In this document: piece after piece, positions 11,361-31,467 of the stretch
Position numbering within the stretch: the stretch's first letter is position 1
Layout: each line of letters begins with the position of its first letter
Assembly (NCBI GenBank): GCA_964511175.1
Contig: CAZEEI010000002.1
Location: forward strand, 2,063-66,062
DNA length: 64,000 nucleotides
Origin: an uncultured Pseudomonadales bacterium
GTDB lineage: Bacteria; Patescibacteriota; Microgenomatia; UBA1400; UBA1396
Reading direction: 5' to 3'
Made by a program: the position numbers and the translations under genes
The notes under the pieces: model-generated
What the model was told of the DNA's origin: nothing
Databases searched by the model: none
Seen by the model: the letters and a program-made list of their open reading frames with translations, nothing else

Positions 11361-11396
11361 ATTGCTGGGTGGAAAAACAACAGTTATACTGGGGTA

Positions 11397-12104
11397 ATGT
11401 TAGAAGAGCGTGATTTGACGTTTGGTTCGTCAGGTCGGTTGCGTAGCGGCTGGGGTAGTTTGGTTAATGACCGAGCTAGTTTTACACCCACCCCTCGTCG
11501 TCGCCATTCACGTCGCGGTTTATTAGGTGCGGTTTTAGTCGTTTTAGTGCTTGGTTTGGGTTTAGTGGCCGCCCTGTTGGCTAGCCAGACCAATTTAGAT
11601 CTACGTCAGTTCGCCTGGGGTGGAGTTAATTTAAACACTAGCCTTTTTCAGCAGCGCTGGCTGGGTCCCAATCTGCAGGAGGTCATAGCCCGAGCTCCGT
11701 CGCAAGCCGGGGTCAAGGAGGTTTTTCACCAGTTAACCCGTCTTTATTGGGATGCTGACGTAGTTAACATTTCTTTACCACAGTTTGATTTTAACGGTGT
11801 AGCGTTTAAGGCCTATGAACCCAGCCGGAACGTTACTTATATTTTTGCCCGTCTAAATAACGTGCCGTGGGTGGAGGGTAAATATCTGGCGCTTTGGCTG
11901 GAAGGTAACGATGGCAGCTGGCTTTATGCCGGTTCACCGGAGTACACCATCGAATCCGGAGTTCTAGTGGCCTATTTTACTTTCCCTCTGGAGGGCAAAG
12001 TCGATCAGTACCGTATTCTCCATATCACTAGCGATAAGACCCAGCGTTCTTCTTTACCGGGCGATGATTTATTAGCTATTGCGTTTGCGGAGGATCAGCC
12101 ATGA
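11397..12104 (+). CDS. Hypothetical membrane-anchored protein (235 aa), translationally coupled to the giant protein gene
   Basis: Single N-terminal TM anchor (LLGAVLVVLVLGLGLVAALLAS) then an extracytoplasmic domain. Its stop TGA overlaps the ATG of the next gene (ATGA at 12101-12104). Confidence 0.5.
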   Translation: MLEERDLTFGSSGRLRSGWGSLVNDRASFTPTPRRRHSRRGLLGAVLVVLVLGLGLVAALLASQTNLDLRQFAWGGVNLNTSLFQQRWLGPNLQEVIARAPSQAGVKEVFHQLTRLYWDADVVNISLPQFDFNGVAFKAYEPSRNVTYIFARLNNVPWVEGKYLALWLEGNDGSWLYAGSPEYTIESGVLVAYFTFPLEGKVDQYRILHITSDKTQRSSLPGDDLLAIAFAEDQP

Positions 12105-15100
12105 GTGTTTGGTCGTCGCTATACTATTGTGGTCGACGCTTGCTGTCAGTATCTTTGCTAATTGGTTTGCTGATATTAGGATCAGCCGGTATTGCTTGGG
12201 CTTGTGATAATGGCGTGCCGGAAGGTGGTGAGGCGCGCAATGCCGGCAACGGTTGTGCCTATCGTTGTGTTAATGGCGGTTGGGAGGGGCCGATTTGGTG
12301 TGATGGTCAAGGTAACGGTCAATTTCAGGGGGAAGCGGCGCGCAGTGAAGCCGACCGGCAAGTTCAGACTAATGCAGTGGCAGAGTCTTTAGCCGAAGCT
12401 GCTGCCCAACTAGCGCAACAGTCGCCTGAGGAAACTGCGCAACATGCTACTAACAATGCCAATCAGCGGGCGTTGGAAGCGATACGTCAGCAAGCGATGG
12501 TTGAATCTCAGCGGCAAGCGGCGGTGGCTAGCGGTGTTTCGGCGGCCGAAGCCGCGGCGCGGTCTTCGGCCGCATCGGCCAACGTATCCCAAGCAGCTGG
12601 TACTACTCAAGGATCTTCGTTGGTAGGCAGCGGCAATCTACTAGCCAATCAACTAGCTGCTTCCGGTTATGGTTCGCCGGAGCAGGCTTTGGCAGCGGCC
12701 GGCTTGTCTGGTTCCAACGTAGCTGGTGCGGCAGTCAGTCAGGCAGTTAATCCGGAGAGTCTAGGTGGATCGTGCGATCTCAACACCGGTGCGGCCGGCA
12801 GCCAAGGGGTGGGTGGCGTTTGCTGCCGGGGTGGAGTGGCGGAATGTGGAGCGGACACCAACGGAGCTTGTATGTCGACACTCGACCGTCCAGGTGTAGT
12901 GGGGGTTTGTGGGGCAGCCGGTAGTCAAGATATATCTGGTTTTTGTGGCGATAGTTTTTGTAACGGTGCCAACGAAAACGCTAACAGTTGTGAGGCTGAT
13001 TGTCGTAATGTTGCCGCCGGCCAATCCGGTAATGCTCTGTTTTTGAGGGAAGGTGGCAAGTGTGTATCTTGTCCATCCGGCAAAGAAAATTCTTGTGGTA
13101 CCTATGCTGAATGTTTACGGGGGGAGACTGATCAACCACTAGTCGAGGCAGTTACCTTAACGCCGGCGCAGCAGCGGCAAATGGATCAATTAACCAATCT
13201 GGCCGACCAGTGTCGCAACGCCATTTACTCTGAGGACGACATTAATGGATTTAAGTGCACTAATCGTTATTTGGAAAAATATAACGAAGTCGCTCAAACC
13301 GCAGACGGTAAAGTAGTAACGGCGCTTATCACCGAACGCCGTGAAGCCGAAAATCACATATATGATCTGGCTGCGAATCTTGCCGAACAGAATATCAATT
13401 GTGAACAGGCCATAAAAACAGGATCCAATTGTCTGATGAATCTTGAGGATTATGAACTAGGCTATGCTGATGCGCTGGCGAGATTTGCCAAATTATATCC
13501 GGAGAGGGCGGCGAAGGTAGAGAGCAATAGCAAAAACTATCAAACCTATTTGGACGAGGAAGCTGGACGAGCTTTGGACACGGCAAAAAACTTAGAACAG
13601 CGTTTTGAAGATTTAGCAACAGAGGTACAATCGCAGTGTAAGGGTGCAGGTTCTCTAGACGAAGTAACAAAGTGTGTCGACCGCAAACGCAACGTGGTAG
13701 AGGCAGCTTATCAAAATTACTCTGATCCGGAGAGTTCATTTTGTCAGCGTTTTCCTAAAAGTTGCGTGTCAGCTAAGGATATTGCATCCGAAGTCCAAGC
13801 GGTGAATGTCGACAATTTGTATCCTGAGGTGGAAGGTAAATATAAACCTGATGGTAGTAGGGTTTGCCGCAGAAATTTGGACAACCTTAATAATTGTGTA
13901 GCATCAATTCCTGGTCAGGTTGAGGTAACGCCGGGAAAGCCGGCCGAAACTAGCCCGGTTGTACCTCCAGAAATCCCTACCGCTCCGGTTGTCCCAACTG
14001 GACTGATTGCGCCCTCTGTTCCGGATGTTCCGAGTGGTAGTGTTCGTGATACTGGTTCAAGAGTTGGGCTTACTAGCGAACAGAAAGCAGCTATCGACGG
14101 CTCAACTGCGGAAACGGTAGCTCCCGCCACGATTCAAGGTTTTGCAATTGAAACGAGAGTAAACCAAGAAGGAGAATCCGAAAATATTTGCCCCGATAAC
14201 TTACCCGGTGGTTGTCACTGTGGTACTAGTGATATTATGTCTGGCATGGGTTGCCCTGCGGGTTCGACCCTAGGGCTTGAAACGTATCCTTGGCGTTGTC
14301 CCAGCCAACCAGAGGTATCGTATTGTCAATGTGATGGTAGGAATGTACTTCCTGATGGCAGTTGTCCCGCGGGATCGGCTTTCTCTGTTATATATGGTTC
14401 GTCAACCAACGAGCAAGAAGAAGCGATTAATGGCTCAGCGGTATCGTTAACCCCACCGGAGACAACGGCTGCTTCCTCTACTGTAGTGGGTGATAAATGT
14501 CCAGACACGTTGGATGGTAAAGAAGTAAAACGGTGTAATTGTGGAACGGGTGACGTTAAAGAGGCTATTGATTCAGGTGACTCTTGTCCGGATGGTTCGT
14601 CGCCTCAGGTAGTCTTGGCTAAGTCGACACCAGCTGACTCAACTACTGTGGTGGCATCATTTTCCCAAGAACAAGTGAATGCTTTTGGCGGGCAGGTGAT
14701 TAACGCACTGCGTAATGTGGGGCAAAATATTACTAATGCTTGGGCCGGTCTTTTTGGTTCGGTTACGGGTGGTACAACAAAACAAGATACTACTACAACG
14801 CAACCAACCACTTCTCAATCGACTAATGAAACAGATCAGTCCACCAGCGAAACAGAGTTCGAAACCAGGCCTGATGAGCAAGGTTGGGATGTTAATATTT
14901 GCCCAGCCGAAGCAGCTGATGGTTGTAATTGTGAGGGTCGTTATATTCGGCCGGGTCAGGAATGCCGGGTACATTTATCCCTAACGGTGTTAAGTAGTGA
15001 GACACCAGTTCAAACTTGTCCCACTAATGCTAATGTTCTCTACTGTGAATGTGACCTAACCACACGACAGCCGGGCGAGACTTGTCCGAGTACCGCCAAG

Positions 15101-16066
15101 TTTAACATTGTTAGGAGTCGGCAGAATGTGATTACTGATCTTACTGATGGTGTTAGGCGAGTAGCGGAACAAGTCTCTTACGCCGTTAATACTCTGGCTC
15201 GTCAGTATGCTGCTAGCCAACTACTTGGTTCGATACAGAATGCTTTGGGAAATATAATGGGTTCTTCCTCGAAGAGTACGACTGAAGTAGATCAAGTTAC
15301 TACCACAACGGAAACCGAAACCGCGCCGATAGCGGAATTGCCTGAAGGAAAAACAGCGGTAGAAGTTCGCAATACACCAATTTCTGGCAACCAGCTTTTA
15401 GATGGTGGTAAAGGATTAGGAAATGGTAGCACTCAAGATAACGGCAACTTTCAGCTTGAAGGATATTGCCAGGTCAAAAACACAGAAAACATGCAATATA
15501 CAGGGGCTATTTCTGATAATGCAGGTAATTGGTTTTGTACAAACGAAAGTGGGGCAAAAGTTCCGCTTACACCAACTGATATGGATGTAGTATGTGGTTT
15601 GACGTATAAAACTGGTGCAAATTTCAACTCAGATGCTGTTGCCGTATTTGTGCCGGGGTTAACTGGTACTCCTGCTTACAACTGGCGTTGCGGGAGCCGT
15701 AGCGGTTCACCGCCACCAATTGAGACATCAGTTGATGAGGCAACGCCAGTAAAAGATTCCCAACAGCCTGAACCCGTGCTTCTCATGAATGGAACTGGTT
15801 TATCGAACGACCAAAGTGTGACTAACGGCAAGATGCAGGTGGAAGGCTACTGCACTGATCAGGGATATGGTATTAAGCAAGACAATACGAATTGGTACTG
15901 TACCGATGCCCAAAATAATGCGGTAAAGACACTTACCTCTACAGATTTTAACCAAATCTGTCAAGAAACATACAACGATCCCAGTGCCTTTGCTGTACAA
16001 GACGGAGCAGATTCGGTTGCCGCTTACAACTGGAACTGTTACGGTTATAATGAGTCGTCACAATGA
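12101..16066 (+). CDS. Giant (1321 aa) secreted cysteine-rich repeat protein; candidate surface adhesin/glycoprotein
   Basis: Signal/anchor (LLSVSLLIGLLILGSAGIAWA) followed by an Ala/Gln/Ser low-complexity region, Cys-rich modules, P/T-rich and T/S-rich linkers, three copies of a CP..GC.C..(W)RCP..YC.CD..CP module and two tandem C-terminal ~90-aa repeats (EGYC...NW[FY]CT...AYNW.C). Uninterrupted 3966-nt ORF; its stop overlaps the ugd start (ATGA at 16063-16066). Confidence 0.8.
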   Translation: MSVWSSLYYCGRRLLSVSLLIGLLILGSAGIAWACDNGVPEGGEARNAGNGCAYRCVNGGWEGPIWCDGQGNGQFQGEAARSEADRQVQTNAVAESLAEAAAQLAQQSPEETAQHATNNANQRALEAIRQQAMVESQRQAAVASGVSAAEAAARSSAASANVSQAAGTTQGSSLVGSGNLLANQLAASGYGSPEQALAAAGLSGSNVAGAAVSQAVNPESLGGSCDLNTGAAGSQGVGGVCCRGGVAECGADTNGACMSTLDRPGVVGVCGAAGSQDISGFCGDSFCNGANENANSCEADCRNVAAGQSGNALFLREGGKCVSCPSGKENSCGTYAECLRGETDQPLVEAVTLTPAQQRQMDQLTNLADQCRNAIYSEDDINGFKCTNRYLEKYNEVAQTADGKVVTALITERREAENHIYDLAANLAEQNINCEQAIKTGSNCLMNLEDYELGYADALARFAKLYPERAAKVESNSKNYQTYLDEEAGRALDTAKNLEQRFEDLATEVQSQCKGAGSLDEVTKCVDRKRNVVEAAYQNYSDPESSFCQRFPKSCVSAKDIASEVQAVNVDNLYPEVEGKYKPDGSRVCRRNLDNLNNCVASIPGQVEVTPGKPAETSPVVPPEIPTAPVVPTGLIAPSVPDVPSGSVRDTGSRVGLTSEQKAAIDGSTAETVAPATIQGFAIETRVNQEGESENICPDNLPGGCHCGTSDIMSGMGCPAGSTLGLETYPWRCPSQPEVSYCQCDGRNVLPDGSCPAGSAFSVIYGSSTNEQEEAINGSAVSLTPPETTAASSTVVGDKCPDTLDGKEVKRCNCGTGDVKEAIDSGDSCPDGSSPQVVLAKSTPADSTTVVASFSQEQVNAFGGQVINALRNVGQNITNAWAGLFGSVTGGTTKQDTTTTQPTTSQSTNETDQSTSETEFETRPDEQGWDVNICPAEAADGCNCEGRYIRPGQECRVHLSLTVLSSETPVQTCPTNANVLYCECDLTTRQPGETCPSTAKFNIVRSRQNVITDLTDGVRRVAEQVSYAVNTLARQYAASQLLGSIQNALGNIMGSSSKSTTEVDQVTTTTETETAPIAELPEGKTAVEVRNTPISGNQLLDGGKGLGNGSTQDNGNFQLEGYCQVKNTENMQYTGAISDNAGNWFCTNESGAKVPLTPTDMDVVCGLTYKTGANFNSDAVAVFVPGLTGTPAYNWRCGSRSGSPPPIETSVDEATPVKDSQQPEPVLLMNGTGLSNDQSVTNGKMQVEGYCTDQGYGIKQDNTNWYCTDAQNNAVKTLTSTDFNQICQETYNDPSAFAVQDGADSVAAYNWNCYGYNESSQ

Positions 16067-17361
16067 AAATTTGCGTAATTGGTACCGGCTTTGTAGGCGT
16101 AGTCACGGCGGCGGTGTTGGCTTCCTTTGATAATGAGGTGGTTGGTTTAGATATTGATCCGGCCAAAATTGCCAAGCTCCGCCAGGGTGAAGTTCCTTTT
16201 TTTGAGCCAAAGCTAGAGGATCTCCTACGTTCGACCCAAACCAACGGTCAGCTTACTTTTACTACCGACTACGCTCAAGCGGTTGGCGACGCTGACGTGG
16301 TGGTTGTAGCGGTAGGAACTCCTTCCGCCCCGGACGGTAATGCCGATCTAACCTATGTTTTTCAAGCTTGTGAGGCCGCTGCCGCCCACCTCAAAGAGGG
16401 GGCTATTTTGGCGATTAAGAGCACTGTGCCGCCCGGCACTCTAACCGAAGTGCGCCAGCATTTGGCCGATCACACGAGTCGTCCCTTTATCTTGGCGTCT
16501 TTGCCGGAATTTCTGCGGGAAGGTTCGGCGGTAGATGACACTTTGCATCCTAGCCGGGTAGTGATCGGTTGTACCGACCCGGCCGGCCAAGAGATTCTAC
16601 GGCGTTTGCACACACCTTTCCAAGCCCCCATAGTCATGGTTTCGCCGGAGAGCGCGCAAATGGGCAAGTATGCGGCCAACGCTTATCTAGCAACGCGGAT
16701 CACTTTTATTAACCAAATTGCCGATCTATGCGAGGTTAACGGTGCTAACGTGCAGGAAGTGATTAAGGTGATCGGTGAAGATCCGCGCATCGGCCGGCAC
16801 TACTGGTACCCTGGTTTGGGTTACGGTGGTTCATGTTTCCCCAAGGACGTGCGCGAATTAGCTGCCTACTCGCGTTCGGTAGGACATGGTAACAATTTGT
16901 TTAACAAAATCAATGAGCTTAACACCGAGCGGATTTTCACTAAACTGGATGAGTTTGAAAAATTAATCGGTACTTGGGAAGGTAAGACCGTGGCGGTGCT
17001 GGGTTTATCCTTTAAGCCCAATACCGATGATTTGCGGGAAGCGCCCAGTACTAAGCTGATTCCTCATCTCCTGCACAAAGGGGCCAAGGTAATTGGTCAT
17101 GACCCCATGGCTATTCCGGTAGCTGAGAAAGTTTTCGAACCGGACGCTAACCTTAGTTTTAGCACTGATTTGTCCGCCGTTGTTGCCGTAGCCGACGTAA
17201 TAATGGTAGTGGTAGAGTGGTCAGAGTATCTTCAGTATCCTTTTGTTCAGGCAGAAGGACGTGGTCGGTTGTTCGTGGATGCCCGTAATCAGTTTGAGCC
17301 ACAAGGTTTATTGCAAGCCGGCTGGCGCTACATGGGTGTAGGCAGGGGAGATCAATCATGA
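16063..17361 (+). CDS. ugd: UDP-glucose 6-dehydrogenase family (nucleotide-sugar dehydrogenase)
   Basis: N-terminal Rossmann MKICVIGTGFVGVV and the catalytic GGSCFPKDV motif; 432 aa. Confidence 0.9.
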   Translation: MKICVIGTGFVGVVTAAVLASFDNEVVGLDIDPAKIAKLRQGEVPFFEPKLEDLLRSTQTNGQLTFTTDYAQAVGDADVVVVAVGTPSAPDGNADLTYVFQACEAAAAHLKEGAILAIKSTVPPGTLTEVRQHLADHTSRPFILASLPEFLREGSAVDDTLHPSRVVIGCTDPAGQEILRRLHTPFQAPIVMVSPESAQMGKYAANAYLATRITFINQIADLCEVNGANVQEVIKVIGEDPRIGRHYWYPGLGYGGSCFPKDVRELAAYSRSVGHGNNLFNKINELNTERIFTKLDEFEKLIGTWEGKTVAVLGLSFKPNTDDLREAPSTKLIPHLLHKGAKVIGHDPMAIPVAEKVFEPDANLSFSTDLSAVVAVADVIMVVVEWSEYLQYPFVQAEGRGRLFVDARNQFEPQGLLQAGWRYMGVGRGDQS

Positions 17362-18308
17362 ACCCACGTGTTTTAATCACTGGCGCTTCCGGTTTTGTCG
17401 GATCCCACTTGGTTGAGTATTTATTAAAACAAGGCTATGCCGATCTTTGGGCGACCGCCAATACACCATCGCCGTGGCTGAATGAACAAGTGGGTGAGGA
17501 TCATGTTGCCGTGATTGATTTGACCGAAAGCCAAGCGGTGTTTGATCTAGTAGCTAATACCAAACCAGATTGGATTATTCACTTAGCCGGACTGGCTTTT
17601 GTGGGGGAAAGCTTTGATCGGGCCACGGAAGTTATGAATAATAATACGGCCTTGCAGTACATTATGCTGGAAGCGATGCGCCGTTTTGTGCCTAAGGCCA
17701 GAATGCTGGCGATTGGTTCGGCGGCGGAGTATGGTTCCTTGCCGGCGGAGTTTGACAGCAGCCGGATTACGGAGGATTTTCCCCTCTATCCCAACAACCC
17801 TTACGCGGTATCTAAACTTACCCAGGATTTTTTGTCACTGTCCTACCACTTGGCTTATGGGCTGGACGTGGTGCGAGTGCGGCCTTTCAATCAAATCGGT
17901 CCCCGCCAGACCGGCCAATTTGCCGTGCCAGCCTTCGCCCAACAAATTGTCCGAGTCGAACGGGGCGAGCAGGAACAAGTAATGGTTGGCAATTTAACAG
18001 CAGTGCGTGATTTTACTGATGTCCGGGATGCGGTGCAGGTTTATGAGTTACTGCTCCAAAAAGGCCGGTCCGGCGAAGTTTACAATCTTGGTTCCGGTCA
18101 GGGCGTTGCTCTCCAGACAATACTCGATATACTAATATCGATGGCTCAGAAGCCGGTTGAGGTGGCGGTTGACCCAGCTCGCCTGCGCCCGGTTGACGTT
18201 CCGGTGTTTGTTGCCGGTAATCAGAAAATTAAGGATCTTGGTTGGCGGCCGCAAATCGAACTGCGCCAAACTTTAGCCGATGTCCTAGCTTACGAAAGGA
18301 AACAATGA
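17358..18308 (+). CDS. NAD-dependent epimerase/dehydratase (SDR extended family; possibly a GDP-4-keto-6-deoxymannose reductase/epimerase partner of Gmd)
   Basis: [19 protein letters not shown] Rossmann motif and a YAVSK catalytic YxxxK. It sits directly upstream of gmd, and its ATG overlaps the ugd stop. Confidence 0.8.
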
Positions 18309-19279
18309 AAAAAGCTTTTATCACTGGTGTAACCGGGCAGGATGGTTCCTATTTAGCTGAGCTGCTGTTAGACAAAGGCTATGCTGTTTATGGTCTCAAT
18401 CGCCGTACCAGTACCCAAAATCTATCGCGTATCATTCATTTGGTGGATAATCCTAATTTCGAATTAGTCTCTGGCGACTTAATTGATCAGCACTCGATCA
18501 CTACGGCTTTACAGAGAATCCAGCCTGACGAAGTATATAACCTAGCCGCCCAATCTTTTGTCCAAACCAGTTGGGAACAGCCGGTTTTAACCGGCGAGTA
18601 TACAGCCTTGGGAGTAACCCGTATGCTGGAGGCGGTACGACTGGCCTGTCCAGGAGCTCATTTTTATCAAGCTTCTTCTTCAGAGATGTTCGGCAAAGTG
18701 CGGGAAGTGCCGCAAAACGAGCAAACACCTTTTTACCCGCGCTCGCCATATGGAGTAGCTAAGGCTTATGGTCATTGGATTACGGTTAATTATCGCGAAT
18801 CTTACGATATGTACGCTGTCTCAGGCATTTTATTTAATCACGAATCACCCCGTCGAGGATTGGAGTTTGTGACGCGGAAGATTTCCCACGCCATTGCCCG
18901 CATTAAACTGGGTAAACAAGACAAAATTCATCTGGGCAATTTAGATTCCAAACGCGATTGGGGATATGCTCGAGACTATGTAGAAGCGATTTGGTTGATG
19001 TTACAGCAGGAAAAGCCTGAAGACTACGTTATTGCGACCGAGGAGACACATTCCGTGCGGGAGTTTTTAATCGAGGCTTGTCGAGTAGCCGAAATACCCA
19101 ACTGGGAGGACATTGTTGTCATTGATGAACGCTACAAGCGGCCGGCGGAAGTTGATTTATTGGTAGGTGATGCTACTAAGGCTCATCAAGAGCTAGGCTG
19201 GCAACCCAAAACTTCCTTTACTGAGTTAGTGCGAATCATGGTTGAGGCCGATTTGGAACTAGTCAAACGAGAAGGGTAA
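18305..19279 (+). CDS. gmd: GDP-mannose 4,6-dehydratase
   Basis: [30 protein letters not shown] is the classic Gmd N-terminus. The Gmd-specific regions are also present (e.g. [10 protein letters not shown]). The ATG at 18305 overlaps the upstream stop, so the ORF-track extension to 18242 is probably spurious. Confidence 0.9.
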
Positions 19280-19286
19280 AGTACGT

Positions 19287-20519
19287 ATGCCTAAAAGTGG
19301 TATGTCACGAGCAGTTATCATTACGCCTACTTATAATGAACGGCCAAATATTGTCAAGCTTGTTCCGGTTTTGGCCGAAGTAATTAAGAAAATTCCCCAG
19401 TGGGAAATACTATTACTAGTGGTCGATGACTCTTCGCCAGATGGTACAGCCGAGGCAGTGCGTGATTTGGCCAAACAGTATTCTTTTGTTCGTCTTTTAG
19501 TAAATAAGCGCAAAAGCGGTCTAGGCGGTGCGTACTTGAAGGGTATGGCCGAAGCTTATGATCAATTAGGGGCGGACGTAGCCTTTGAACTGGACGCCGA
19601 TTTATCACATGATCCCAAAAAAATCCCCGCCTTTTTGCATGAAATTGATCGTGGTGCCGATCTAGTGCTGGGCTCGCGCTACGTCAAAGGTGGTTCTATT
19701 CCCAGCAACTGGGGACTACATCGTAAGTTTTTGAGTGTGGTTGGTAATTGGACTATCTCTTTAGTATTAGCTTCGCGGGCGGTGAGCGACTGGACAACTG
19801 GTTACCGGGCTATCCGCCGTCAAGTTTATGAAACGGTCAAAAATGACCTACAATCAGAGCGTTTCTCCGGTTATACCTTCCAAATTGGTTTTCTGTATAA
19901 AGCATTACGGGCTGGATTTCGCGTTACGGAAGTACCTTTTCATTTTATTGATCGCGAATACGGCGTTTCTAAATTGGGGACGGAATATATCATCAATACG
20001 CTACGCTATATTTTAACCACGCGTATCCAAGAGATAATAAGCTCGCGCATTTTTAAATTTCTGGTGGTGGGCGGCATTGGTTTTGTGGTTAATTTTGTGG
20101 CTTTCCAAGCGTTTAACGTTCTGCATCTCTGGACAGCCCTTCAGCAAAGTTTGGGTTTGATTAATGCGGCACCCTGGCTATCGCTGTTTGCTTCCGATCA
20201 AAGTGTAGCGGTAGTGTTGGGCGCAGAATGTGCCATTGTTTCCAATTATCTACTCAACAACGTTTGGACTTTTGGCGATCGCCGCATTACCGGTTGGCGC
20301 CATCTGCATAAGTTTCTTACTTTTAATGCCGGCTCGGTCGGTTCAGTAGTAATCCAATATATAACCATGCAGGCGGCAATCACTTGGTTTGGCGTCTCCA
20401 CTCTAGGACAAATGGGCGGTTTTCCTTTGCAGAGTGACTCGATCTATTTAGCGATCGGGGTATTACTGGGCATGATTTGGAACTTTACGATTTATAGCTT
20501 AGTAATTTGGAGAAAGTAG
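19287..20519 (+). CDS. GT2 polyprenol-phosphate glycosyltransferase (Dpm1/GtrB-like) fused to a C-terminal GtrA-family membrane domain
   Basis: GT2 signature (IITPTYNERPNI...LLVVDDSSPDGT...DADLSHDP) then a four-TM GtrA-like domain (FLVVGGIGFVVNFVAF...YLLNNVWTF). Confidence 0.8.
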   Translation: MPKSGMSRAVIITPTYNERPNIVKLVPVLAEVIKKIPQWEILLLVVDDSSPDGTAEAVRDLAKQYSFVRLLVNKRKSGLGGAYLKGMAEAYDQLGADVAFELDADLSHDPKKIPAFLHEIDRGADLVLGSRYVKGGSIPSNWGLHRKFLSVVGNWTISLVLASRAVSDWTTGYRAIRRQVYETVKNDLQSERFSGYTFQIGFLYKALRAGFRVTEVPFHFIDREYGVSKLGTEYIINTLRYILTTRIQEIISSRIFKFLVVGGIGFVVNFVAFQAFNVLHLWTALQQSLGLINAAPWLSLFASDQSVAVVLGAECAIVSNYLLNNVWTFGDRRITGWRHLHKFLTFNAGSVGSVVIQYITMQAAITWFGVSTLGQMGGFPLQSDSIYLAIGVLLGMIWNFTIYSLVIWRK

Positions 20520-20520
20520 T

Positions 20521-22107
20521 ATGTTGGAGCCTGCCTGGCGTTCTTACCGGTCCTGGTGGCAGCGGCGGACCAGTGCTGAGCGTGTTACTTACTTAATTTT
20601 GGTTCTAGCCACCGTGGGTGCTGCTATCCTACGCTTGGCTTTTTTTCGTAGCAATTTACAGTATTTAGCCGATCAAGGTCGGGATGTAATTATTGCCTAC
20701 GGTATTTTACATGGCGATATTGCTCTGGTTGGTCCGTCCACTAGTGTGGGTAGCATGTTCTTGGGGCCACTGTACTACTACTTTATGGCACCTTTTTTGT
20801 TATTAAGTAACTTTGATCCAATCGGTCCCGCGCTAGCAGTTGCTTGGCTAGGGATTTTAACTGTCCCGCTGATTTATTGGGTGGGTAAGCGTTTAGTTGG
20901 TCCAGCGCCAGCGTTAATCGCCGCCCTGCTTTATGCCGGTGCGCCGGTGGTAATTGAGTATACTCGTTTTTCTTGGAATCCTAATCCCGCTCCGATAGTG
21001 ATGTTATGCTTACTTTATTGTGTTTGGCGAGCCTGGCGTGGTTCGGCCTGGTGGTGGTGCGGCGCGGCAGCGGCGATTGCTGTCCTCAGTCAACTCCACT
21101 ACGTGGCCCTACTCGCTGCCGCGCCCACTGGTCTCTACTGGTTAGCCGATGTGGTCCGTTCGGTACGATCCCGCCGCCAACGTCTGCCTAGTTTGGGGCA
21201 GTCTACTTTAGCGGCAGGTCTGATCATTTTGTTTTCCTTACTGCCGCTAATTGTCTTTAACTGGCGTTTCGATAATCTAATTTGGAAAGGCTTCGTCGAT
21301 TTCCTGAATGGTGATCAGGATGTCAAAACGGTTGTTCAACCATTGTCTTCCTTAGTGCGTTCGCTGCGGGAAACACAGGGTCGAGCTCTCCAAACCGTGT
21401 TTGAAATTTGGGGAAAGGAATGGAGTCCTTGGTACCGTCAAATCAACATCAGTTTATTGAGCGGCTATGTAGTCGTTTTAGCGGTGGGTTGGTATCGTTT
21501 CAGCCGTTCACGTTACCGCGACGGTTATAATTTGCTGTTGGCAGCGTCGCTTAGTACCTGGTTGGGTCTTTCCTGGTACCGTTCCAGTGTTTTTTTTCAT
21601 TATTTCTCCTTTTTCTTCCCAGTGGCCTATCTTCTAACCGGTATAGTAGTTGTCCAACTTTATCGCTGGTTTAAGTGGCTGGGCTTTGTCCTGGCCGCTG
21701 TTTTGTTGGGTTATATTGGTTGGCTGGCTGCACGCCCGGAAAATACTTTGTATCTTAATCGGTTGGGTTGGCAAATCGATGATGTTAAGCGGGTGGCGGC
21801 GCAAGTTTCCGCTTTAGTACCGGATGGGAAAACTTATTCTTTAACCGAATTATCGGCCTTGCGTGATTACCGCGGTTTGGTTTACCGTTATTTCCTATTG
21901 AAATCGAATCATCCACCGGTGTCGTTGGAACGTTCGGCCGAAGCTGATTATTTAGTAGTGATTGCGGACGATCCCCGCCAACCAGGTGATGTACTAAGCT
22001 CGCCAGTTTACGAAATTGCTGCTTTCCCCAGGGGAGATTACCGTATTGTGCAAAGTGAGAATGGTCCCTGGTTGTACCTTATTAGTCGTTCAACTATGGT
22101 AGAGTAG
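20521..22107 (+). CDS. GT-C fold membrane glycosyltransferase, ArnT/PMT (GT39/GT83)-like
   Basis: Polytopic N-terminal half with a DQGRD...GP.....GS.FLGPLYYY loop motif, and a C-terminal soluble domain. Paralog of the gene at 1..732. Confidence 0.7.
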   Translation: MLEPAWRSYRSWWQRRTSAERVTYLILVLATVGAAILRLAFFRSNLQYLADQGRDVIIAYGILHGDIALVGPSTSVGSMFLGPLYYYFMAPFLLLSNFDPIGPALAVAWLGILTVPLIYWVGKRLVGPAPALIAALLYAGAPVVIEYTRFSWNPNPAPIVMLCLLYCVWRAWRGSAWWWCGAAAAIAVLSQLHYVALLAAAPTGLYWLADVVRSVRSRRQRLPSLGQSTLAAGLIILFSLLPLIVFNWRFDNLIWKGFVDFLNGDQDVKTVVQPLSSLVRSLRETQGRALQTVFEIWGKEWSPWYRQINISLLSGYVVVLAVGWYRFSRSRYRDGYNLLLAASLSTWLGLSWYRSSVFFHYFSFFFPVAYLLTGIVVVQLYRWFKWLGFVLAAVLLGYIGWLAARPENTLYLNRLGWQIDDVKRVAAQVSALVPDGKTYSLTELSALRDYRGLVYRYFLLKSNHPPVSLERSAEADYLVVIADDPRQPGDVLSSPVYEIAAFPRGDYRIVQSENGPWLYLISRSTMVE

Positions 22108-22113
22108 AACCAT

Positions 22114-22866
22114 ATGGCCGCGCCTTTTTTATCGGTAGTTATTCCCTCCTATAATGAGAAAACCAATTTGGCACGTGGGGTGCTGGATCGGGTAATCGAT
22201 TTTTTGCAGAAACAGTCTTATGGCTGGGAGGTGGTGCTTACTGATGATGGTTCAACGGATGGCACTGTGGCGGCGCTGCATAGTTTTGCCCACCAGCATC
22301 CAGAAGCGCGGGTAATCGAAAATGTACATCGCGGCAAAGGACCCACGGTGGCCGCCGGGATGTTGGCAGCGACTGGTCAGTATCGCTTATTTACTGATTT
22401 TGACCAATCTACCCCGATTGAAGATTTGGCCAGATTTATGCCGTTTATTCGTGATGGTTATGACGTCGTAATTGGTTCCCGCGCTGTACAGGGGGCGCAA
22501 CGAGCCAGTGAACCTCTCCATCGCCATTTGATGGGTAAGGTGTTCAATCTTTTAGTGCAAATGATTGCTGTTCCTGGTATCCACGACACCCAGTGCGGTT
22601 TTAAACTTTTTTCGGCGGTGGCCACGGAGAAATTATTTCCTAAAATGGTAATTTATGGTGGGAAAGAGCGGCAAGATGCTTTTACCGGTGCTTTTGACGT
22701 CGAGCTTTTGCTGTTGGCGCGCCGCGCTGGCTACCAAATTGCGGAGGTGCCAGTGCAGTGGCAACATAATGAAACCCAACGAGTGAGTCCAGTTAAGGAT
22801 TCACTGCGGATGTTTGGCGACATCATTAAAATCCGTTGGGCCGATTTGGCGAAGCGCTATCAATGA
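22114..22866 (+). CDS. GT2 glycosyltransferase (polyprenol-phosphate sugar synthase-like)
   Basis: LSVVIPSYNEKTNL...VVLTDDGSTDGT...DFDQSTP motifs; 250 aa soluble GT2. Confidence 0.8.
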   Translation: MAAPFLSVVIPSYNEKTNLARGVLDRVIDFLQKQSYGWEVVLTDDGSTDGTVAALHSFAHQHPEARVIENVHRGKGPTVAAGMLAATGQYRLFTDFDQSTPIEDLARFMPFIRDGYDVVIGSRAVQGAQRASEPLHRHLMGKVFNLLVQMIAVPGIHDTQCGFKLFSAVATEKLFPKMVIYGGKERQDAFTGAFDVELLLLARRAGYQIAEVPVQWQHNETQRVSPVKDSLRMFGDIIKIRWADLAKRYQ

Positions 22867-24059
22867 ACACACGGTATCGTTGGGGACTCGGTTTTTATTT
22901 TCTCACATTAGTGATTCTAGCCGCGTGGTCTTACGCTTTTACCGATCCTAACTTAATCATGTTGAACCAGCCCTGGTTTGTCGTCTGGCAAAATTATTGG
23001 TGGCAGATAGCGCAAAATGCAGGGTTATTAGGAGGTTTGTTTATCAGTTTAACTACGGTGATGGTGATTGGTTATCTCAATTTATGGCGAGCGCTGTCGG
23101 TTAAATCGATAAGACTAAAAAAGTTTATTCCTTGGTTAACGGCAATTGCAGTGATTTTGTCACTAGGTTATAACGCCTATTCGCACGATATTTTCAATTA
23201 CCTGTTTAACGCCAAAATGATTTGGCAGTACGGTGCCAACCCGCATGTGCAAGTGGCCCTTGATTTTGTCGGCGATCCCTGGCTGCGCTTTATGCATAAC
23301 GTGCACACACCAGCTCCCTACGGCTACGGTTGGACGGTTCTTTCGCTAGTTCCTTATGCCTTTAGTTTTGGTAAATTTCTTACTGCTTACCTAGCCATGA
23401 AGGGGTGGATGATAGTGGGCTGGGTCTGGTTATTGGGGGCAGTTTGGCAGTTAATCCGGTCGGATAAGTTGGATCATCCCGCTCAACGCTGGTTAGGGCT
23501 AGCCTTCCACCCTTTAGTGTTGATCGAAACCCTGCTTAATGGACACAACGATGTTTGGATGATGGCGCCAGCCTTGACGGCTTGGTACTTACTCAGTCAT
23601 CGCCGCCGCAGTGCTACTACTATTGGTTTAGTGATTGGTTTGATGGTGTTTTCGATTTCAATTAAGTTTGTGACAATCTTGTTGTTGCCGCTAATGTTAC
23701 TAACGTGGTGGCCGCTAAAATTGAGACCACAATTAGATTGGATAAGAGATCACTGGGCCGAAATAGCGACCTTATTATTAATATTACCGTTGTTAACGTC
23801 CCGCTCCCAACAATTTCATCCTTGGTATTTAATTTGGGCCCTATCCTTCCTGCCATTAACCCGGTGGCGCTGGTTGGAGTGGGGGGTAAGCGGATTATCG
23901 CTGAGTGCGTTGTATCGTTACTATCCGTGGATTCTTAATGATTTTCAATATACTGATCAAGTCGAGTTGCAAATGCGCCTGATCACCTGGAGCGGTTTAC
24001 TGTTGGGATTAGGCGGGTGGTTAATGGTTCGCTGGCAATATAATCGGAAACATCATTAG
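22863..24059 (+). CDS. Polytopic membrane protein (possible GT-C/DUF2029-like mannosyltransferase)
   Basis: At least 10 predicted TM helices with conserved loops (HNDVWMMAPAL, HPWYL). The ATG at 22863 overlaps the upstream stop (ATGA). Last gene of the plus-strand operon. Confidence 0.45.
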   Translation: MNTRYRWGLGFYFLTLVILAAWSYAFTDPNLIMLNQPWFVVWQNYWWQIAQNAGLLGGLFISLTTVMVIGYLNLWRALSVKSIRLKKFIPWLTAIAVILSLGYNAYSHDIFNYLFNAKMIWQYGANPHVQVALDFVGDPWLRFMHNVHTPAPYGYGWTVLSLVPYAFSFGKFLTAYLAMKGWMIVGWVWLLGAVWQLIRSDKLDHPAQRWLGLAFHPLVLIETLLNGHNDVWMMAPALTAWYLLSHRRRSATTIGLVIGLMVFSISIKFVTILLLPLMLLTWWPLKLRPQLDWIRDHWAEIATLLLILPLLTSRSQQFHPWYLIWALSFLPLTRWRWLEWGVSGLSLSALYRYYPWILNDFQYTDQVELQMRLITWSGLLLGLGGWLMVRWQYNRKHH

Positions 24060-24061
24060 TT

Positions 24062-25552
24062 TTAGTTGTTTTGCCGTACCCTGCTTAGTTCTCTAAAGAA
24101 AAAGGCATCTCCCTTGCCGGTATATTGGTATTGCAGAGTGTTGCCCTCAAGTGTGTTACCAATCCACAGCGCTCGCTGAGTCGACTTTGGATTAAACAGA
24201 ACACCGTTGATTGCATCGGCATATTCAGTCATATTCGACAAAGCACCTAATATTAAACACGTTACCAATGCCTTTTTTATATTTCCTTTGCTTGTTTTAA
24301 GAGCCAAGGGTACATAGGTAAAAATAACCAACCAAGGAATTACTGATACTCTCATTGAAAAATCATGACATAACCCATAATCCACCAATAAAATTATGGT
24401 CATAGTTACCGCAGCCGTAAGCATTAGTCCCTGATCAATCCTGCTCTGTATTGCTCCAGTTTTCCACACTACAGACCACAAGAGTCCAAATTCCAAAGTA
24501 ATAAACAATAGTAAAATCGCCCAATTATTTAAAAGCCAAGTTAAACCTCTAATCTTAGCTGCTGCTCCACCAGCAGTGCCAAGATCCATTGATAAAAAAT
24601 AGAGACTAGTTGGTATGGCAATCACTATTAAAGATAAAATATTGGGGACGCTAATAAATTTTTTAATCCGGAATTTTTCTAAAAGCAAAAGGCAGATAGC
24701 AAATGGCAAGAGACCGATAGCCACTAAAGGGGACCACAACAATAGCAGACAAGCGAATAAAATAAGTAATTTATAATTTGATTTTTTTAAAAGCGTTAGC
24801 GTCTCAAAGGTGGCAATCCAAGCGCAAATATAATGTTGAATCGACCAACGCCAAGCTGTTCCCATGGAATGATAATTGGCAATATGTTGTCCATTGCGTC
24901 CAGTTATATTAGCCCAATGGTCTAGGTGGACTAGAGGATCGGGCCAAGTACCCGTTGTTAGAACATAGCCGATAACGTCCATGCCGGCAAAAAACAAAAA
25001 TAAAAGAAAAGTTTTTAGGGTTGGCTTGCCGGTTGCCACCAACATCCAGAACACGCCCAAGCCAGCACCTAAGAAAGACCAGACAAGTAAAGTTGTTTCA
25101 CAAGCGCGGTAACTGCCTAAAACCTTACCAATTAGTGCAGCTGGTAAATAAAAGGCTACATAGTAATTTAATACCTGGTTTGAACCATCACTAGTCACCG
25201 CATTGTAAGAAACAGGCCAACTTTTCTCATACAAATCATGCAATACGGCATTATTTTTTGCCCAATCTCCTGTCTGTTTTCCGATAACCGCCCCAACCCC
25301 TGTCGCTAGCAATAAAGCTAAGATAATTCCCAGGATAATGAAAACTGTTGATTTTTCCAACGCGAATTTTTTAAAAGGAATTTTTTGGATTTCCTTACCA
25401 GTAAAATATAAAATTACGGTTAATCCTAGAGATAAGATTAGCGGGTAAATATTTTTTAGATTACCCAAATAAAAAATAAAATAAGGGATAATTAAATATA
25501 AAATCCCCAAAAACATCATTAATCGTTGTGATTTTTCTCCAAATACAAACAC
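24062..25552 (-). CDS. Polytopic membrane protein (O-antigen polymerase/ligase- or GT-C-like), AT-rich
   Basis: 496 aa with more than 10 TM helices and a visibly lower GC than its neighbours. Last gene of the minus-strand glycan operon. Confidence 0.45.
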   Translation of the reverse strand: MFVFGEKSQRLMMFLGILYLIIPYFIFYLGNLKNIYPLILSLGLTVILYFTGKEIQKIPFKKFALEKSTVFIILGIILALLLATGVGAVIGKQTGDWAKNNAVLHDLYEKSWPVSYNAVTSDGSNQVLNYYVAFYLPAALIGKVLGSYRACETTLLVWSFLGAGLGVFWMLVATGKPTLKTFLLFLFFAGMDVIGYVLTTGTWPDPLVHLDHWANITGRNGQHIANYHSMGTAWRWSIQHYICAWIATFETLTLLKKSNYKLLILFACLLLLWSPLVAIGLLPFAICLLLLEKFRIKKFISVPNILSLIVIAIPTSLYFLSMDLGTAGGAAAKIRGLTWLLNNWAILLLFITLEFGLLWSVVWKTGAIQSRIDQGLMLTAAVTMTIILLVDYGLCHDFSMRVSVIPWLVIFTYVPLALKTSKGNIKKALVTCLILGALSNMTEYADAINGVLFNPKSTQRALWIGNTLEGNTLQYQYTGKGDAFFFRELSRVRQNN

Positions 25553-25555
25553 TTC

Positions 25556-26506: not shown

Positions 26507-26512
26507 TCTTTA

Positions 26513-28602: not shown

Positions 28603-28605
28603 ATT

Positions 28606-30446: not shown

Positions 30447-30492
30447 ATAACTTCCCAGCATTCTGACAGAGTTGAAGGTTAAAATCAAAAGT

Positions 30493-31449: not shown

Positions 31450-31467
31450 TGAGTTAAGTATAGCAGT

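Follow-up and report, generated by a model that had tools for sequence, protein, structure and literature searches.

Does a giant secreted Cys-rich protein form one dedicated glycosylation system with the sugar-nucleotide and glycosyltransferase genes that follow it? The question was raised by the sequence-only reading of the window, the whole 64,000-nucleotide stretch of patescibacterial DNA that was analysed here. All nine plus-strand ORFs of 11397–24059 were recovered where that reading had placed them (Table 1), with ATGA start/stop overlaps at 12101, 16063, 17358, 18305 and 22863 and spacings of 7, 1 and 6 nt at the other junctions, so the description of genes that overlap or lie no more than 10 nt apart holds (maximum 7 nt). 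The genome is ~94% coding, and close gene spacing is its usual state. Same-strand junctions of ≤10 nt make up 8/8 within the nine-gene region, compared with 19/33 elsewhere, and the close-spaced plus-strand run extends upstream of 11397, with gaps of 8–36 nt, into unrelated housekeeping genes (tRNA-binding protein, FtsH, 5'-3' exonuclease and a PolB-exo-like protein).

Table 1. Features of the locus, in window coordinates
Feature	Position	Strand	Basis
Promoter-like element of the 235-aa/giant module: TTGCTG, 17 nt, TATACT	11362..11390	+	Read from sequence; function inferred
p235, 235-aa single-pass membrane protein	11397..12104	+	Predicted TM segment and alignment
Giant secreted Cys-rich protein, 1321 aa	12101..16066	+	Cys count and predicted N-terminal signal/TM
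Conserved N-terminal module of giant family, aa 35–340	12203..13120	+	Alignment of 12 members
Pro-rich linker of giant protein, aa 603–648	13907..14044	+	Composition scan
Five 4-Cys "CP...CxC...C" modules of giant protein, aa 697–995	14189..15085	+	Cys positions
Ser/Thr-rich linker of giant protein, aa 885–926, S+T ≥50%	14753..14878	+	Composition scan
C-terminal 4-Cys domain, copy 1, aa 1108–1204	15422..15712	+	jackhmmer/hmmsearch domain matches
C-terminal 4-Cys domain, copy 2, aa 1236–1321	15806..16063	+	
Promoter-like element of sugar cassette: CTTACA, 17 nt, TATAAT	16023..16051	+	Consensus scan, 10/12 match
Ugd, NDP-sugar 6-dehydrogenase	16063..17361	+	PF03721, PF00984, PF03720, TIGR03026
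Rmd-like SDR, GDP-4-keto-6-deoxy-D-mannose reductase (to GDP-D-rhamnose), 316 aa	17358..18308	+	PDB matches
Gmd, GDP-mannose 4,6-dehydratase	18305..19279	+	TIGR01472, PF16363
Dpm1/ArnC-like GT2 fused to GtrA-type membrane domain	19287..20519	+	PF00535, PF04138
GT-C glycosyltransferase, PMT_2 family; extracytoplasmic C-terminal alpha/beta domain, aa ~435–528	20521..22107	+	PF13231
Second GT2, soluble, 250 aa	22114..22866	+	PF00535
Polytopic membrane protein, MptA/B-family GT-C	22863..24059	+	Orthology
Lower-GC island (GC 0.38 vs ~0.47)	24062..30488	-	Not present in relatives
Decaprenyl-phosphate phosphoribosyltransferase homologue (UbiA family) and WecA/MraY-like GT4	30493..32535	-	NF008978, WecA model, synteny
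512-aa polytopic membrane protein	32886..34424	-	jackhmmer link to PMT_2-like GT-Cs; profile drift possible

Among the 80 species-level Patescibacteria loci fetched, the complete seven-gene cassette was present in order in 48 and its four-gene core in 56, whereas the giant gene was found in only two (78/80 lacked it). In the closest relative, L006, whose flanking genes are 65–81% identical, the PolB-exo gene is followed by ugd after 63 nt; in L011 an exonuclease gene precedes ugd by 22 nt, and tblastn found no giant-gene remnants in either locus. The nearest giant homologues, P0002 and P0003, lie upstream of nrdR and uvrB, respectively, and neither upstream of ugd; each is paired with a p235 homologue (39% identity). 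The giant pair and the sugar cassette are evolutionarily independent modules, and because the cassette is widespread and the pair rare and separately movable, the two are neighbours rather than a dedicated system. The sequence-only reading had itself named relatives without this linkage as grounds for refuting the dedicated module, and such relatives exist, the closest one included; this counts against that proposal, as do the cassettes that lack a giant gene and the pairs that sit beside uvrB or nrdR. Of nine distinct contexts examined, seven have the 235-aa/giant pair immediately 5' of the cassette, an adjacency that could reflect a functional preference.

Each module also has a promoter-like element of its own. 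The first stops 6 nt short of the ATG at 11397, and TTGCnn-17-TAnnCT recurs upstream of p235 in all six loci inspected (this one and the orthologues in five relatives). The second is embedded in the giant ORF at its 3' end, with 11 nt left before the ugd ATG. A −10-like hexamer ending 4–13 nt upstream of ugd (peak 6–7 nt) was seen in 26/51 loci, compared with 12/233 at internal cassette genes (Fisher p = 4e-14), in relatives with and without the giant gene alike; such a hexamer also occurs just 5' of the second GT2 gene in 31/77 relatives' loci. With a conserved element for each module, the claim that all nine genes are a single obligate transcription unit was not upheld. The giant/ugd overlap at 16063 belongs to this genome alone, 26–46 nt separating the two genes in relatives. 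Because a scan of the giant/ugd junction found no terminator-like site and the two genes overlap by 4 nt here, transcription from the p235 promoter probably continues into ugd.

The description of the giant protein as secreted, Cys-rich and equipped with linkers was confirmed: it has an N-terminal signal/TM segment (aa 13–37), 57 Cys residues (4.3%), a single Pro-rich linker and a single linker strongly enriched in Ser/Thr. No match was found in Pfam, NCBIfam or PDB sequences, and only 11 homologues were recovered, with similarity confined to the N-terminal 250–600 aa. The N-terminal module, with the pattern CD[GN]..G..(H/A)RNxGNGCxYxC..W.GP..CDGxGNGQFQ, a helical Ala/Gln-rich stretch and CCRGG..EC, is the sole family-wide conserved part of the 12 aligned proteins. 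The Cys residues of the five CxC modules fall at 697/705/707/718, 733/742/744/755, 800/812/814/829, 934/942/944/955 and 973/982/984/995. The C-terminal 4-Cys domain (consensus G.FQVE.YC..GYG...D..DW.CT...L...DFD.IC..TY....AFA.QDG....AYNWRCY.) occurs in this member alone among the 12 and appears to be an undescribed, binding-type domain. The Ser/Thr-rich linker is the only plausible mucin-like O-glycosylation tract of the protein; comparable tracts are found in three of the 12 family members and in none of the other nine. As for p235, a variable Arg-rich cytoplasmic N-terminus is followed by a TM segment (~aa 38–67) and an extracytoplasmic domain of ~165 aa, with QTN(L/F)DLRQ(F/W)AWGG invariant in the alignment. 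It matched nothing in Pfam, NCBIfam or PDB, and its family is rare (only 6 clusters among 5.8 billion proteins). In all nine distinct contexts examined, p235 lies directly 5' of a giant homologue; the start/stop overlap of the two genes was checked in L001–L005 and L007 and is also visible in further gene tables, and p235 was assigned by homology in L086 and L087. We propose that p235 partners the giant protein at the membrane or anchors it there.

Profile and structure searches established the enzyme classes of the cassette. The ugd and gmd calls were both supported above cutoff, Ugd at 409.5 bits against TIGR03026 (cutoff 189.8; TuaD 396.8, under its equivalog cutoff) and Gmd at 452.3 bits against TIGR01472 (cutoff 415; PF16363, E = 1.4e-134); Ugd probably converts UDP-glucose to UDP-glucuronate. 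The 316-aa protein between them, formerly called an epimerase, gave its best, full-length match to PDB 2pk3 (E = 2.8e-64, aa 4–313 of 316), the GDP-6-deoxy-D-lyxo-4-hexulose reductase Rmd, followed by 6x3b (E = 6e-44), and so is reassigned as an Rmd-type reductase. Pfam recovered both halves of the GT2-GtrA fusion (PF00535, aa 11–182; PF04138, aa 257–408) as well as the second GT2, as had been read. The top NCBIfam matches of the fusion are all Pol-P-sugar synthases (ArnC, PgfS, PpgS and AglJ, each under cutoff), which suggests a polyprenyl-phosphate-sugar synthase; the second GT2 likewise has top matches under cutoff, to dolichyl-phosphate hexose transferase (63.9 bits), PgfS and ArnC, and is probably a second polyprenyl-phosphate-hexose synthase. 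For the PMT/ArnT-like GT-C, membership of the PMT_2 family stood (PF13231, 39.8 bits), but the closer likeness did not: its fold is about equally distant from PMT, ArnT, OST and ALG enzymes, with ArnT giving the highest Foldseek query TM-score (0.56), and it matched neither PMT-specific Pfam models nor curated protein-glycosylation equivalogs. The PgfS model scored 57.7 bits (cutoff 500), and JGI names the GT-C homologues "4-amino-4-deoxy-L-arabinose transferase-like". The last product is indeed a membrane protein and can be placed more finely, by orthology, as a likely MptA/B-family GT-C: orthologues of 44–49% identity bear PF26314 (MptA_B_family), and conserved motifs include SHDIFNY, HN and HND. 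A local Pfam search matched nothing in this protein or in its L001 orthologue and did not reproduce the MptA/B assignment.

Next to the cassette lies the lower-GC island, which encodes a 496-aa membrane protein, a PgfS-like GT2, Glf, an SDR, CDP-glucose 4,6-dehydratase and Glc-1-P cytidylyltransferase; Glf and the CDP-glucose pathway genes scored above cutoffs. In relatives the UbiA-family gene comes straight after the MptA/B gene. Its product scored 218.6 bits against NF008978 (DPPR synthase, cutoff 207) and the WecA/MraY-like GT4 84.7 bits, under cutoff, against the WecA model; the two genes are convergent neighbours of the cassette with conserved synteny. In at least 23 of 62 loci the next gene after MptA/B is an ORF resembling the 512-aa protein. 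That protein is probably a third GT-C-type enzyme, and several GT-C paralogues occur per cassette locus.

The strongest rival to a glycopolymer pathway, in our view an unlikely one, is a weakened form of the original proposal, general extracytoplasmic protein O-glycosylation. Here GT-Cs would move polyprenyl-phosphate sugars onto disordered, Ser/Thr-rich stretches in many exported proteins; the giant protein would be an accessory substrate, its gene inserted directly upstream and co-transcribed by read-through. The gene logic is that of Pgf (PgfS GT-A, PgfE and the GT-Cs PgfM1 and PgfM2) and GtrB/PgtC2, by which Ser/Thr-rich regions are glycosylated extracellularly (PMC12041528). In Streptococcus mutans, cnm, an accessory gene for an adhesin, is present in ~15% of strains yet shares a transcript with the core pgf genes (PMC5856776), the same core/accessory pattern as in the cassette and giant pair. 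The gene arrangement, which the sequence-only reading did not recognise as a described system, thus has a described analogue, and because of this precedent the loss of linkage counts against "dedicated" and not against "substrate". By analogy with cnm-pgf, the Ser/Thr linker of the giant protein may be glycosylated, and the composition of the linker and the recurrent adjacency of pair and cassette are consistent with it. Nine of the 12 family members, however, have no such tract, and the GT-C has no PMT-specific match and nearly equal fold scores for PMT, ArnT, OST and ALG. Of the proposed Dpm1-plus-PMT logic, a polyprenyl-phosphate-sugar synthase followed by a GT-C survives, but mannosylation is not supported, UDP-GlcA and GDP-D-rhamnose, and hence Ugd and Gmd/Rmd, not being needed for simple O-mannosylation. 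The MptA/B-type polymerising GT-C, the DPPR-synthase homologue, the WecA-like enzyme and the extra GT-Cs suggest polysaccharide assembly instead.

An Arn-like modification of a lipid or glycolipid that shifts surface charge is improbable. Here Ugd and the SDR would yield a UDP-pentose or uronic acid, an ArnC-like GT2 would load it onto undecaprenyl phosphate and an ArnT-like GT-C would pass it to a membrane lipid. Ugd feeds the Arn pathway and ugd is first in the cassette, ArnC is the top NCBIfam match of the GT2-GtrA protein (60.6 bits), and the JGI name and the ArnT TM-score agree with this reading. Every Arn equivalog cutoff is nevertheless missed by far, the SDR beside ugd is an Rmd-type GDP-sugar reductase and not an ArnA-like decarboxylase (ArnA 30.7 bits, cutoff 777), and the Pfam/NCBIfam search found no ArnB aminotransferase, formyltransferase or ArnD deformylase in the cassette. 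Members of this patescibacterial group are, to our knowledge, monoderm-like, and lipid A synthesis is not known from them. Most improbable of all is a strictly dedicated adhesin-glycosylation operon with nine genes as one functional unit for the giant protein, since the tight spacing and terminator-free junction that speak for it are outweighed by the genome-wide norm of tight junctions, the overlap at 16063 unique to this genome, the two conserved promoter-like elements and comparative data that already contradict it (cassette without giant gene, pair without cassette).

We favour, with reasonable though not high confidence, two independent modules that happen to lie side by side in this lineage, of which the cassette most likely builds an envelope glycopolymer or lipoglycan. 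In Module B (16063–24059), the seven-gene cassette that recurs in many Patescibacteria, family-level homology suggests that Ugd would supply UDP-glucuronate, and Gmd and Rmd GDP-D-rhamnose, in the cytoplasm. The two Dpm1/ArnC-like GT2s would then charge polyprenyl phosphate with sugars, the GtrA-type domain of one possibly helping to flip its product across the membrane, and outside the PMT_2-type and MptA/B-type GT-Cs would pass the sugars to an acceptor. We know of no characterised precedent for a lipid-linked glucuronate or D-rhamnose donor; the specific lipid-carried sugars, like the acceptor and the p235–giant interaction, are inferred. Because the DPPR homologue, the WecA-like enzyme, the probable third GT-C (all conserved neighbours) and, in this genome, Glf adjoin the cassette, the acceptor is most likely an envelope glycopolymer or lipoglycan, a single dedicated protein being less likely; the assembly may resemble that of lipomannan and arabinogalactan in Corynebacterineae. 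Module A (11397–16066) is rare and consists of two genes, p235 and the giant gene, which overlap by 4 nt and are preceded by a promoter-like element of their own. The giant protein, presumably Sec-exported, combines the conserved ~300-aa N-terminal module with a freely varying C-terminal part, represented here by the five CxC modules, the Pro-rich and Ser/Thr-rich linkers and the two 4-Cys domain copies. Through the N-terminal module p235 may tether this otherwise anchorless protein to the membrane, and its variable C-terminus would reach outwards and contact either a host cell or the bacterium's own envelope.

The nine consecutive plus-strand ORFs from which the sequence-only reading had built a dedicated surface-protein O-glycosylation operon were all found exactly in place between positions 11397 and 24059. 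They comprise p235 (a 235-aa membrane protein), a giant 1321-aa Cys-rich secreted protein, and a seven-gene cassette, ugd–rmd–gmd–GT2GtrA–GTC–GT2–MptA/B. The ATGA start/stop overlaps at 12101, 16063, 17358, 18305 and 22863 were confirmed, the other gaps being 7, 1 and 6 nt. The window is, however, ~94% coding, and tight spacing is the rule throughout: same-strand junctions of 10 nt or less account for 19/33 outside the region and 8/8 inside it. The tight plus-strand run also extends upstream through genes for a tRNA-binding protein, FtsH, a 5'-3' exonuclease and a PolB-exonuclease-like protein. Because tight spacing is general in the window and the run continues upstream, it is weak evidence of shared function, and the lesson for the original claim is that close gene packing in 94%-coding genomes says little about a common role. 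With its GTG start at 9349, the longest ORF of the 5'-3' exonuclease would share 50 nt with ftsH; translation could also begin at 9382, 9430 or 9433, which leaves this start ambiguous. A PolB-exonuclease/RNase H-like gene separates the 5'-3' exonuclease from p235 here and, among the relatives inspected, otherwise only in the closest (L006); in other relatives a gene for a small ion channel stands between ftsH and the exonuclease. An Rfam scan of the whole window placed no RNA element within 11397-24059. The features discussed are collected in the table.

Features in and around the p235/giant pair and the seven-gene cassette (window positions)
Feature	Position	Strand	Remarks
PolB-exonuclease/RNase H-like gene	10392-11360	+	
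p235 promoter-like element	11362-11390		TTGCnn, 17 nt, TAnnCT; -10-like hexamer 11385-11390; ends 6 nt before ATG
p235	11397-12104	+	
Giant Cys-rich protein	12101-16066	+	
ugd -10-like element	16046-16051		TATAAT, within last codons of giant ORF
Seven-gene cassette	16063-24059	+	
PMT_2 GT-C	20521-22107	+	
Second GT2	22114-22866	+	
MptA/B-like protein	22863-24059	+	
Lower-GC island	24062-30488	-	GC ~0.38 vs ~0.47; inserted between MptA/B-like and UbiA-family genes relative to all close relatives
Third GT2	25556-26506		
UbiA-family protein	30493-31449	-	NF008978 equivalog (decaprenyl-phosphate phosphoribosyltransferase, Rv3806c type), 218.6 bits vs cutoff 207
512-aa polytopic protein	32886-34424	-	no Pfam match; linked by jackhmmer to PMT_2-type GT-Cs
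tmRNA gene	34463-34877	+	Rfam RF00023, 77 bits; abuts end of glycan locus; not reported by ARAGORN

Comparison with relatives divided the nine genes into two modules. A GT-C profile scan of one genome per species yielded 302 relatives, of which the best 80 loci were retained; the informatively titled records among these were Patescibacteria (Woesebacteria, Microgenomates and Paceibacterota). Many cassette records are titled "uncultured Pseudomonadales", "Gammaproteobacteria", "Vitreimonas" or "Methylococcaceae", and because of their gene content these MAGs are probably taxonomically mislabelled or represent mis-binned contigs. The intact order ugd–rmd–gmd–GT2GtrA–GTC–GT2–MptA/B was present in 48 of the best 80 of the 302 loci, and a four-gene core in 56/80, whereas the giant gene occurred in just two of these 80 (L007 and L010). 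In L006, whose flanking genes are 65-81% identical to those of the window, the PolB-exonuclease gene is followed by ugd across 63 nt, and in a second relative (L011) the exonuclease is followed by ugd across 22 nt; two further loci (L008 and L015) hold ~620 nt of unrelated sequence at the p235/giant position. No remnants of p235 or the giant gene were found by tblastn in any of these four loci. Conversely, p235 lies directly before the giant gene in every context examined, usually with overlapping start/stop codons, and the pair stands upstream of ugd in seven of nine distinct contexts. For the two nearest giant homologues, what comes after the p235-like gene (39% identity) and the giant gene is nrdR (L086) or uvrB (L087). 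Since it is found before nrdR and uvrB, away from the cassette, the pair is a two-gene unit of its own, and each module occurs without the other. The proposed conservation of linkage between the large protein and the sugar genes does not hold, and the comparative data contradict the idea that the nine genes form a dedicated operon for adhesin glycosylation.

Generic promoter and terminator scans of positions 6000-25000 returned counts equal to the shuffled expectation and were uninformative, so cross-species positional conservation was used instead. The TTGCnn-17-TAnnCT element was present upstream of p235 in 6/6 loci. A hexamer with at least a 5/6 match to TAnnnT ends 4-13 nt (mostly 6-7 nt) before the ugd ATG in 26/51 loci, compared with 12/233 for the internal genes rmd, gmd, GT2GtrA, GT-C and MptA/B (Fisher p = 4e-14), and it is present with or without a giant gene upstream. 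The cassette thus appears to have its own transcription start, predicted to give a leaderless or short-leader mRNA. A similar element precedes the second GT2 in 31/77 loci, and the cassette may comprise two units, ugd to GT-C and GT2 to MptA/B. The 4-nt overlap at 16063 is peculiar to the window genome, relatives having 26-46 nt there; read-through from the p235/giant unit into the cassette is likely, as no terminator is evident. Across loci L001-L066, -10-like hexamers lie 6-7 nt before the start codons of the first genes of units, a pattern that suggests leaderless or very short-leader mRNAs to be common in these Patescibacteria.

Most of the enzyme assignments made from sequence inspection were upheld by Pfam and NCBIfam, and two required correction. 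Ugd matched the nucleotide-sugar dehydrogenase model TIGR03026 over its cutoff, and Gmd matched the TIGR01472 equivalog with 452.3 bits (cutoff 415). The 316-aa SDR, taken earlier for an epimerase, instead proved to be a full-length match to Rmd, GDP-6-deoxy-D-lyxo-4-hexulose reductase, aligning with the Rmd structures 2pk3 (E 2.8e-64, aa 4-313) and 6x3b (E 6e-44). UDP-xylose or Arn-like chemistry was considered for this SDR and rejected, the Rmd match being much stronger. Given a Gmd equivalog and an end-to-end Rmd homologue, GDP-D-rhamnose is the expected product, which the pair should make by the Gmd-Rmd pathway of Aneurinibacillus thermoaerophilus and Pseudomonas aeruginosa. The GT2 fused to a GtrA/DPMS membrane domain (PF00535 + PF04138) and the second, soluble GT2 were both confirmed. 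Their top NCBIfam matches (ArnC, PgfS, PpgS, AglJ and dolichyl-phosphate hexose transferase) are all polyprenyl-phosphate-sugar synthases, and GT2GtrA is accordingly placed as a predicted member of the Dpm1/Ppm1/ArnC class, in the sense of class membership only, as no equivalog cutoff was reached. Against the PgfS model NF047588, both cassette GT2s remained at 57.7 bits (cutoff 500).

The first polytopic enzyme, described before as PMT/ArnT-like, is a GT-C by its sole Pfam match, PF13231 (PMT_2, 39.8 bits); the PMT-specific domains PF02366 (PMT) and PF16192 (PMT_4TMC) gave no match. Profile and single-sequence searches of PDB sequences found no PMT, and profiles of the PMT_2 GT-C and of the MptA/B-like protein retrieved nothing from PDB sequences even at E = 10. 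An AlphaFold model of the PMT_2 GT-C, built from 53 homologues, was confident, with a pLDDT of 93.6. When this model was searched with Foldseek, STT3, AglB and ArnT ranked first, with TM-scores of 0.56 for ArnT and 0.54 for Pmt4 at 10-16% sequence identity to the matches. As modelled, the enzyme would lie about equidistant from protein-acting and glycan- or lipid-acting GT-Cs, favouring neither PMT nor ArnT. It has the GT-C fold, and acidic residues are conserved in its first extracytoplasmic loop, which holds an invariant D51-Q52-(G53)-R54-D55 motif. The last polytopic protein, the second call to be corrected, has four orthologues (44-49% identity) that carry PF26314, MptA_B_family (the family of the lipomannan alpha-1,6-mannosyltransferases MptA and MptB), in precomputed annotations; PF26314 in the local Pfam copy matched neither the window protein nor the annotated orthologue in locus L001. 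An hhalign comparison of the MptA/B-like protein with the PMT_2 group gave 6.6% probability, that is, no detectable relationship.

Conserved convergent neighbours of the cassette are the UbiA-family protein, a WecA/MraY-like GT4 and the 512-aa membrane protein. In Corynebacterineae, decaprenyl-phosphate phosphoribosyltransferase, the predicted identity of the UbiA-family protein, opens the route to the arabinofuranose donor, which is lipid-linked. Its predicted presence in Patescibacteria is unexpected; in relatives, too, the gene adjoins the WecA-like GT4. Relatives of the 512-aa protein directly follow the MptA/B gene in at least 23 loci (among L017-L052), and the conserved unit may have eight genes in most lineages. 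The lower-GC island, which probably provides strain-specific glycan variation, encodes a 496-aa polytopic protein, for which jackhmmer found nothing, a PgfS-like GT2 (179 bits, still under the PgfS cutoff of 500), Glf (UDP-galactopyranose mutase), an SDR, CDP-glucose 4,6-dehydratase and Glc-1-P cytidylyltransferase.

Neither the giant protein nor p235 matched Pfam, NCBIfam or PDB sequences. Among 5.8 billion sequences the giant protein had just 11 homologues, and p235 formed six clusters. The giant protein has 57 Cys residues and a Sec-type signal peptide, with no LPxTG motif or C-terminal TM segment. It was considered as a lipoprotein and rejected: there is no lipobox, as the conserved Cys lies one residue past an AxA-type signal peptidase I site in most homologues. 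All homologues are Cys-rich (3.6-7.7%), and in the family alignment conservation is confined to the N-terminal part, which holds a CD[GN]...RNxGNGC...CDGxGNGQFQ knot, an Ala/Gln-rich helical stretch and a CCRGG..EC cluster. Beyond it the homologues vary completely; in the window this part consists of a helical Cys-paired region, a Pro-rich linker, five CP..CxC..C modules, Ser/Thr-rich linkers and 4-Cys domains. A tract of at least 50% Ser/Thr is found in only 3 of 12 family members, and that of the window protein spans aa 885-926. p235 is a single-pass membrane protein with an invariant juxtamembrane QTN(L/F)DLRQ(F/W)AWGG motif and a conserved ectodomain. Its identification as an RskA-type anti-sigma factor was discarded, the ectodomain resemblance being superficial, with no Pfam support and no conserved cytoplasmic zinc-finger/anti-sigma domain.

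The C-terminal 4-Cys domain (80 aa, two copies in the giant protein) is absent from all other giant homologues. It recurs in 153 representative proteins, usually at the extreme C-terminus; the 84 carriers scanned included 22 Ser/Thr kinases, 31 SH3_3 proteins and several beta-propeller proteins. It would seem to be a domain for binding or sensing outside the membrane that has so far gone undescribed.

Among known systems, several GT-Cs acting with lipid-linked donors and a WecA-like primer typify the building of glycopolymers outside the membrane, as for lipomannan and arabinogalactan in Corynebacterineae. With Ppm1 and MptA/MptB (lipomannan) and UbiA (DPPR synthase)/Emb/Aft (arabinan) of that group, the window shares a predicted extracytoplasmic glycan assembly by several GT-Cs from polyprenyl-phosphate sugars, as well as an MptA_B_family member (by orthology), a homologue of DPPR synthase, a WecA-like primer enzyme and Glf, all close by. 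It differs in phylum, in having no mycolate envelope and in its predicted sugar nucleotides, UDP-GlcA and GDP-D-rhamnose.

A live rival is that the giant protein is glycosylated as one substrate of the cassette. In Streptococcus mutans, cnm is an accessory adhesin gene co-transcribed with core GT-A and GT-C genes that glycosylate the Thr-rich region of Cnm (PMC5856776), and in the GtrB/PgtC2 (S. pyogenes and S. pneumoniae) and Pgf systems many exported proteins are glycosylated on disordered stretches rich in Ser and Thr (PMC12041528). The window shares with Pgf (cnm-pgfS-pgfM1-pgfE-pgfM2) and GtrB/PgtC2 a GT-A polyprenyl-phosphate-sugar synthase, GT-Cs and a sugar-nucleotide-modifying enzyme; glycosylation in those systems takes place outside the membrane on Ser/Thr-rich regions, such as the giant protein also has. 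As in cnm-pgf, the gene of an accessory exported protein immediately precedes the core genes (here the giant gene before ugd); the likeness is confined to the layout. This rival stays live because a core cassette with an accessory giant gene is the same pattern as cnm-pgf. Set against it, the cassette differs from Pgf in having Ugd, Gmd, Rmd and an MptA/B-type GT-C and reaches no curated Pgf model, while the giant protein is without an LPxTG anchor and most of its relatives are without Ser/Thr-rich tracts. On balance we consider glycosylation of the giant protein by the cassette doubtful.

With actinobacterial and eukaryotic protein O-mannosylation (Ppm1/Dpm1 with a GT39 PMT) the window shares a Dpm1-like GT2 and a GT-C with an acidic first-loop motif, but the window GT-C has no PF02366, PF16192 or MIR domain, its identity is 10-14%, and ArnT, OST and ALG12 score nearly as high; nor does mannosylation require the sugar genes of the cassette. 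ArnC/ArnT (GT83) lipid A modification and GtrA/GtrB/GtrX O-antigen glucosylation share a GT2 synthase, a GtrA-type domain and a GT-C, and ugd supplies the precursor in the Arn pathway, but the window is without ArnA, ArnB and ArnD and misses every equivalog cutoff (ArnC 60.6 bits vs 529, ArnA 30.7 vs 777, no ArnT model match), Pfam and NCBIfam searches of the cassette gave no aminotransferase, formyltransferase or deformylase, and we know of no lipid A or O-antigen in the host lineage. Altogether, no cassette protein fell within the curated PMT, ArnT/ArnC or PgfS families. Literature searches on Patescibacteria GT-C, polyprenol and lipoglycan found no description of the cassette in the phylum, and those on a giant Cys-rich protein in Patescibacteria likewise found none.

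We therefore regard the earlier interpretation as partly supported, its dedicated O-glycosylation system being the weakest part, and favor assembly of an envelope glycan. The analysis shows the enzyme classes of the cassette; the sugars carried and the acceptor are inferred. Ugd and Gmd/Rmd would supply UDP-GlcA and GDP-D-rhamnose, the two Dpm1/ArnC-class GT2s would make polyprenyl-phosphate sugars, and the two GT-Cs would transfer these on its outer side to an acceptor that is most probably a glycopolymer or lipoglycan of the envelope. Separately, p235 would tether the anchorless giant protein through the conserved N-terminal module of the latter, leaving the variable C-terminus to contact, putatively, the host or the envelope. 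A broader proposal, unlikely as a whole, is that Microgenomates-type Patescibacteria build, outside the membrane, an envelope lipoglycan or wall polysaccharide resembling those of actinobacteria from polyprenyl-phosphate sugars (possibly glucuronate, D-rhamnose and a phosphoribose-derived pentose), using at least three GT-Cs of a conserved locus, and that one Woesebacteria-related clade has in addition co-opted it, cnm-pgf-like, to O-glycosylate an accessory giant Cys-rich adhesin, tethered by its dedicated partner p235 and ending in a previously undescribed 4-Cys binding domain.

Patescibacteria, most of them uncultured, are presumed to live as episymbionts, with the cell envelope as the interface; to our knowledge, almost nothing has been established about that envelope by experiment. 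What makes the locus most valuable is its conserved envelope-glycan cassette, together with the p235/giant pair and the new C-terminal domain. The last of these is found also in receptor-type Ser/Thr kinases, has no Pfam model or solved fold and is worth structural study. The p235/giant pair is a compact candidate attachment module, conserved at the end proposed to anchor it and changing fast at the outer end. The seven-gene cassette, with two lipid-sugar synthase/GT-C pairs and a predicted supply of UDP-GlcA and GDP-D-rhamnose beside a DPPR-synthase homologue, is present in dozens of species and offers a testable handle on a major surface glycoconjugate of Patescibacteria.
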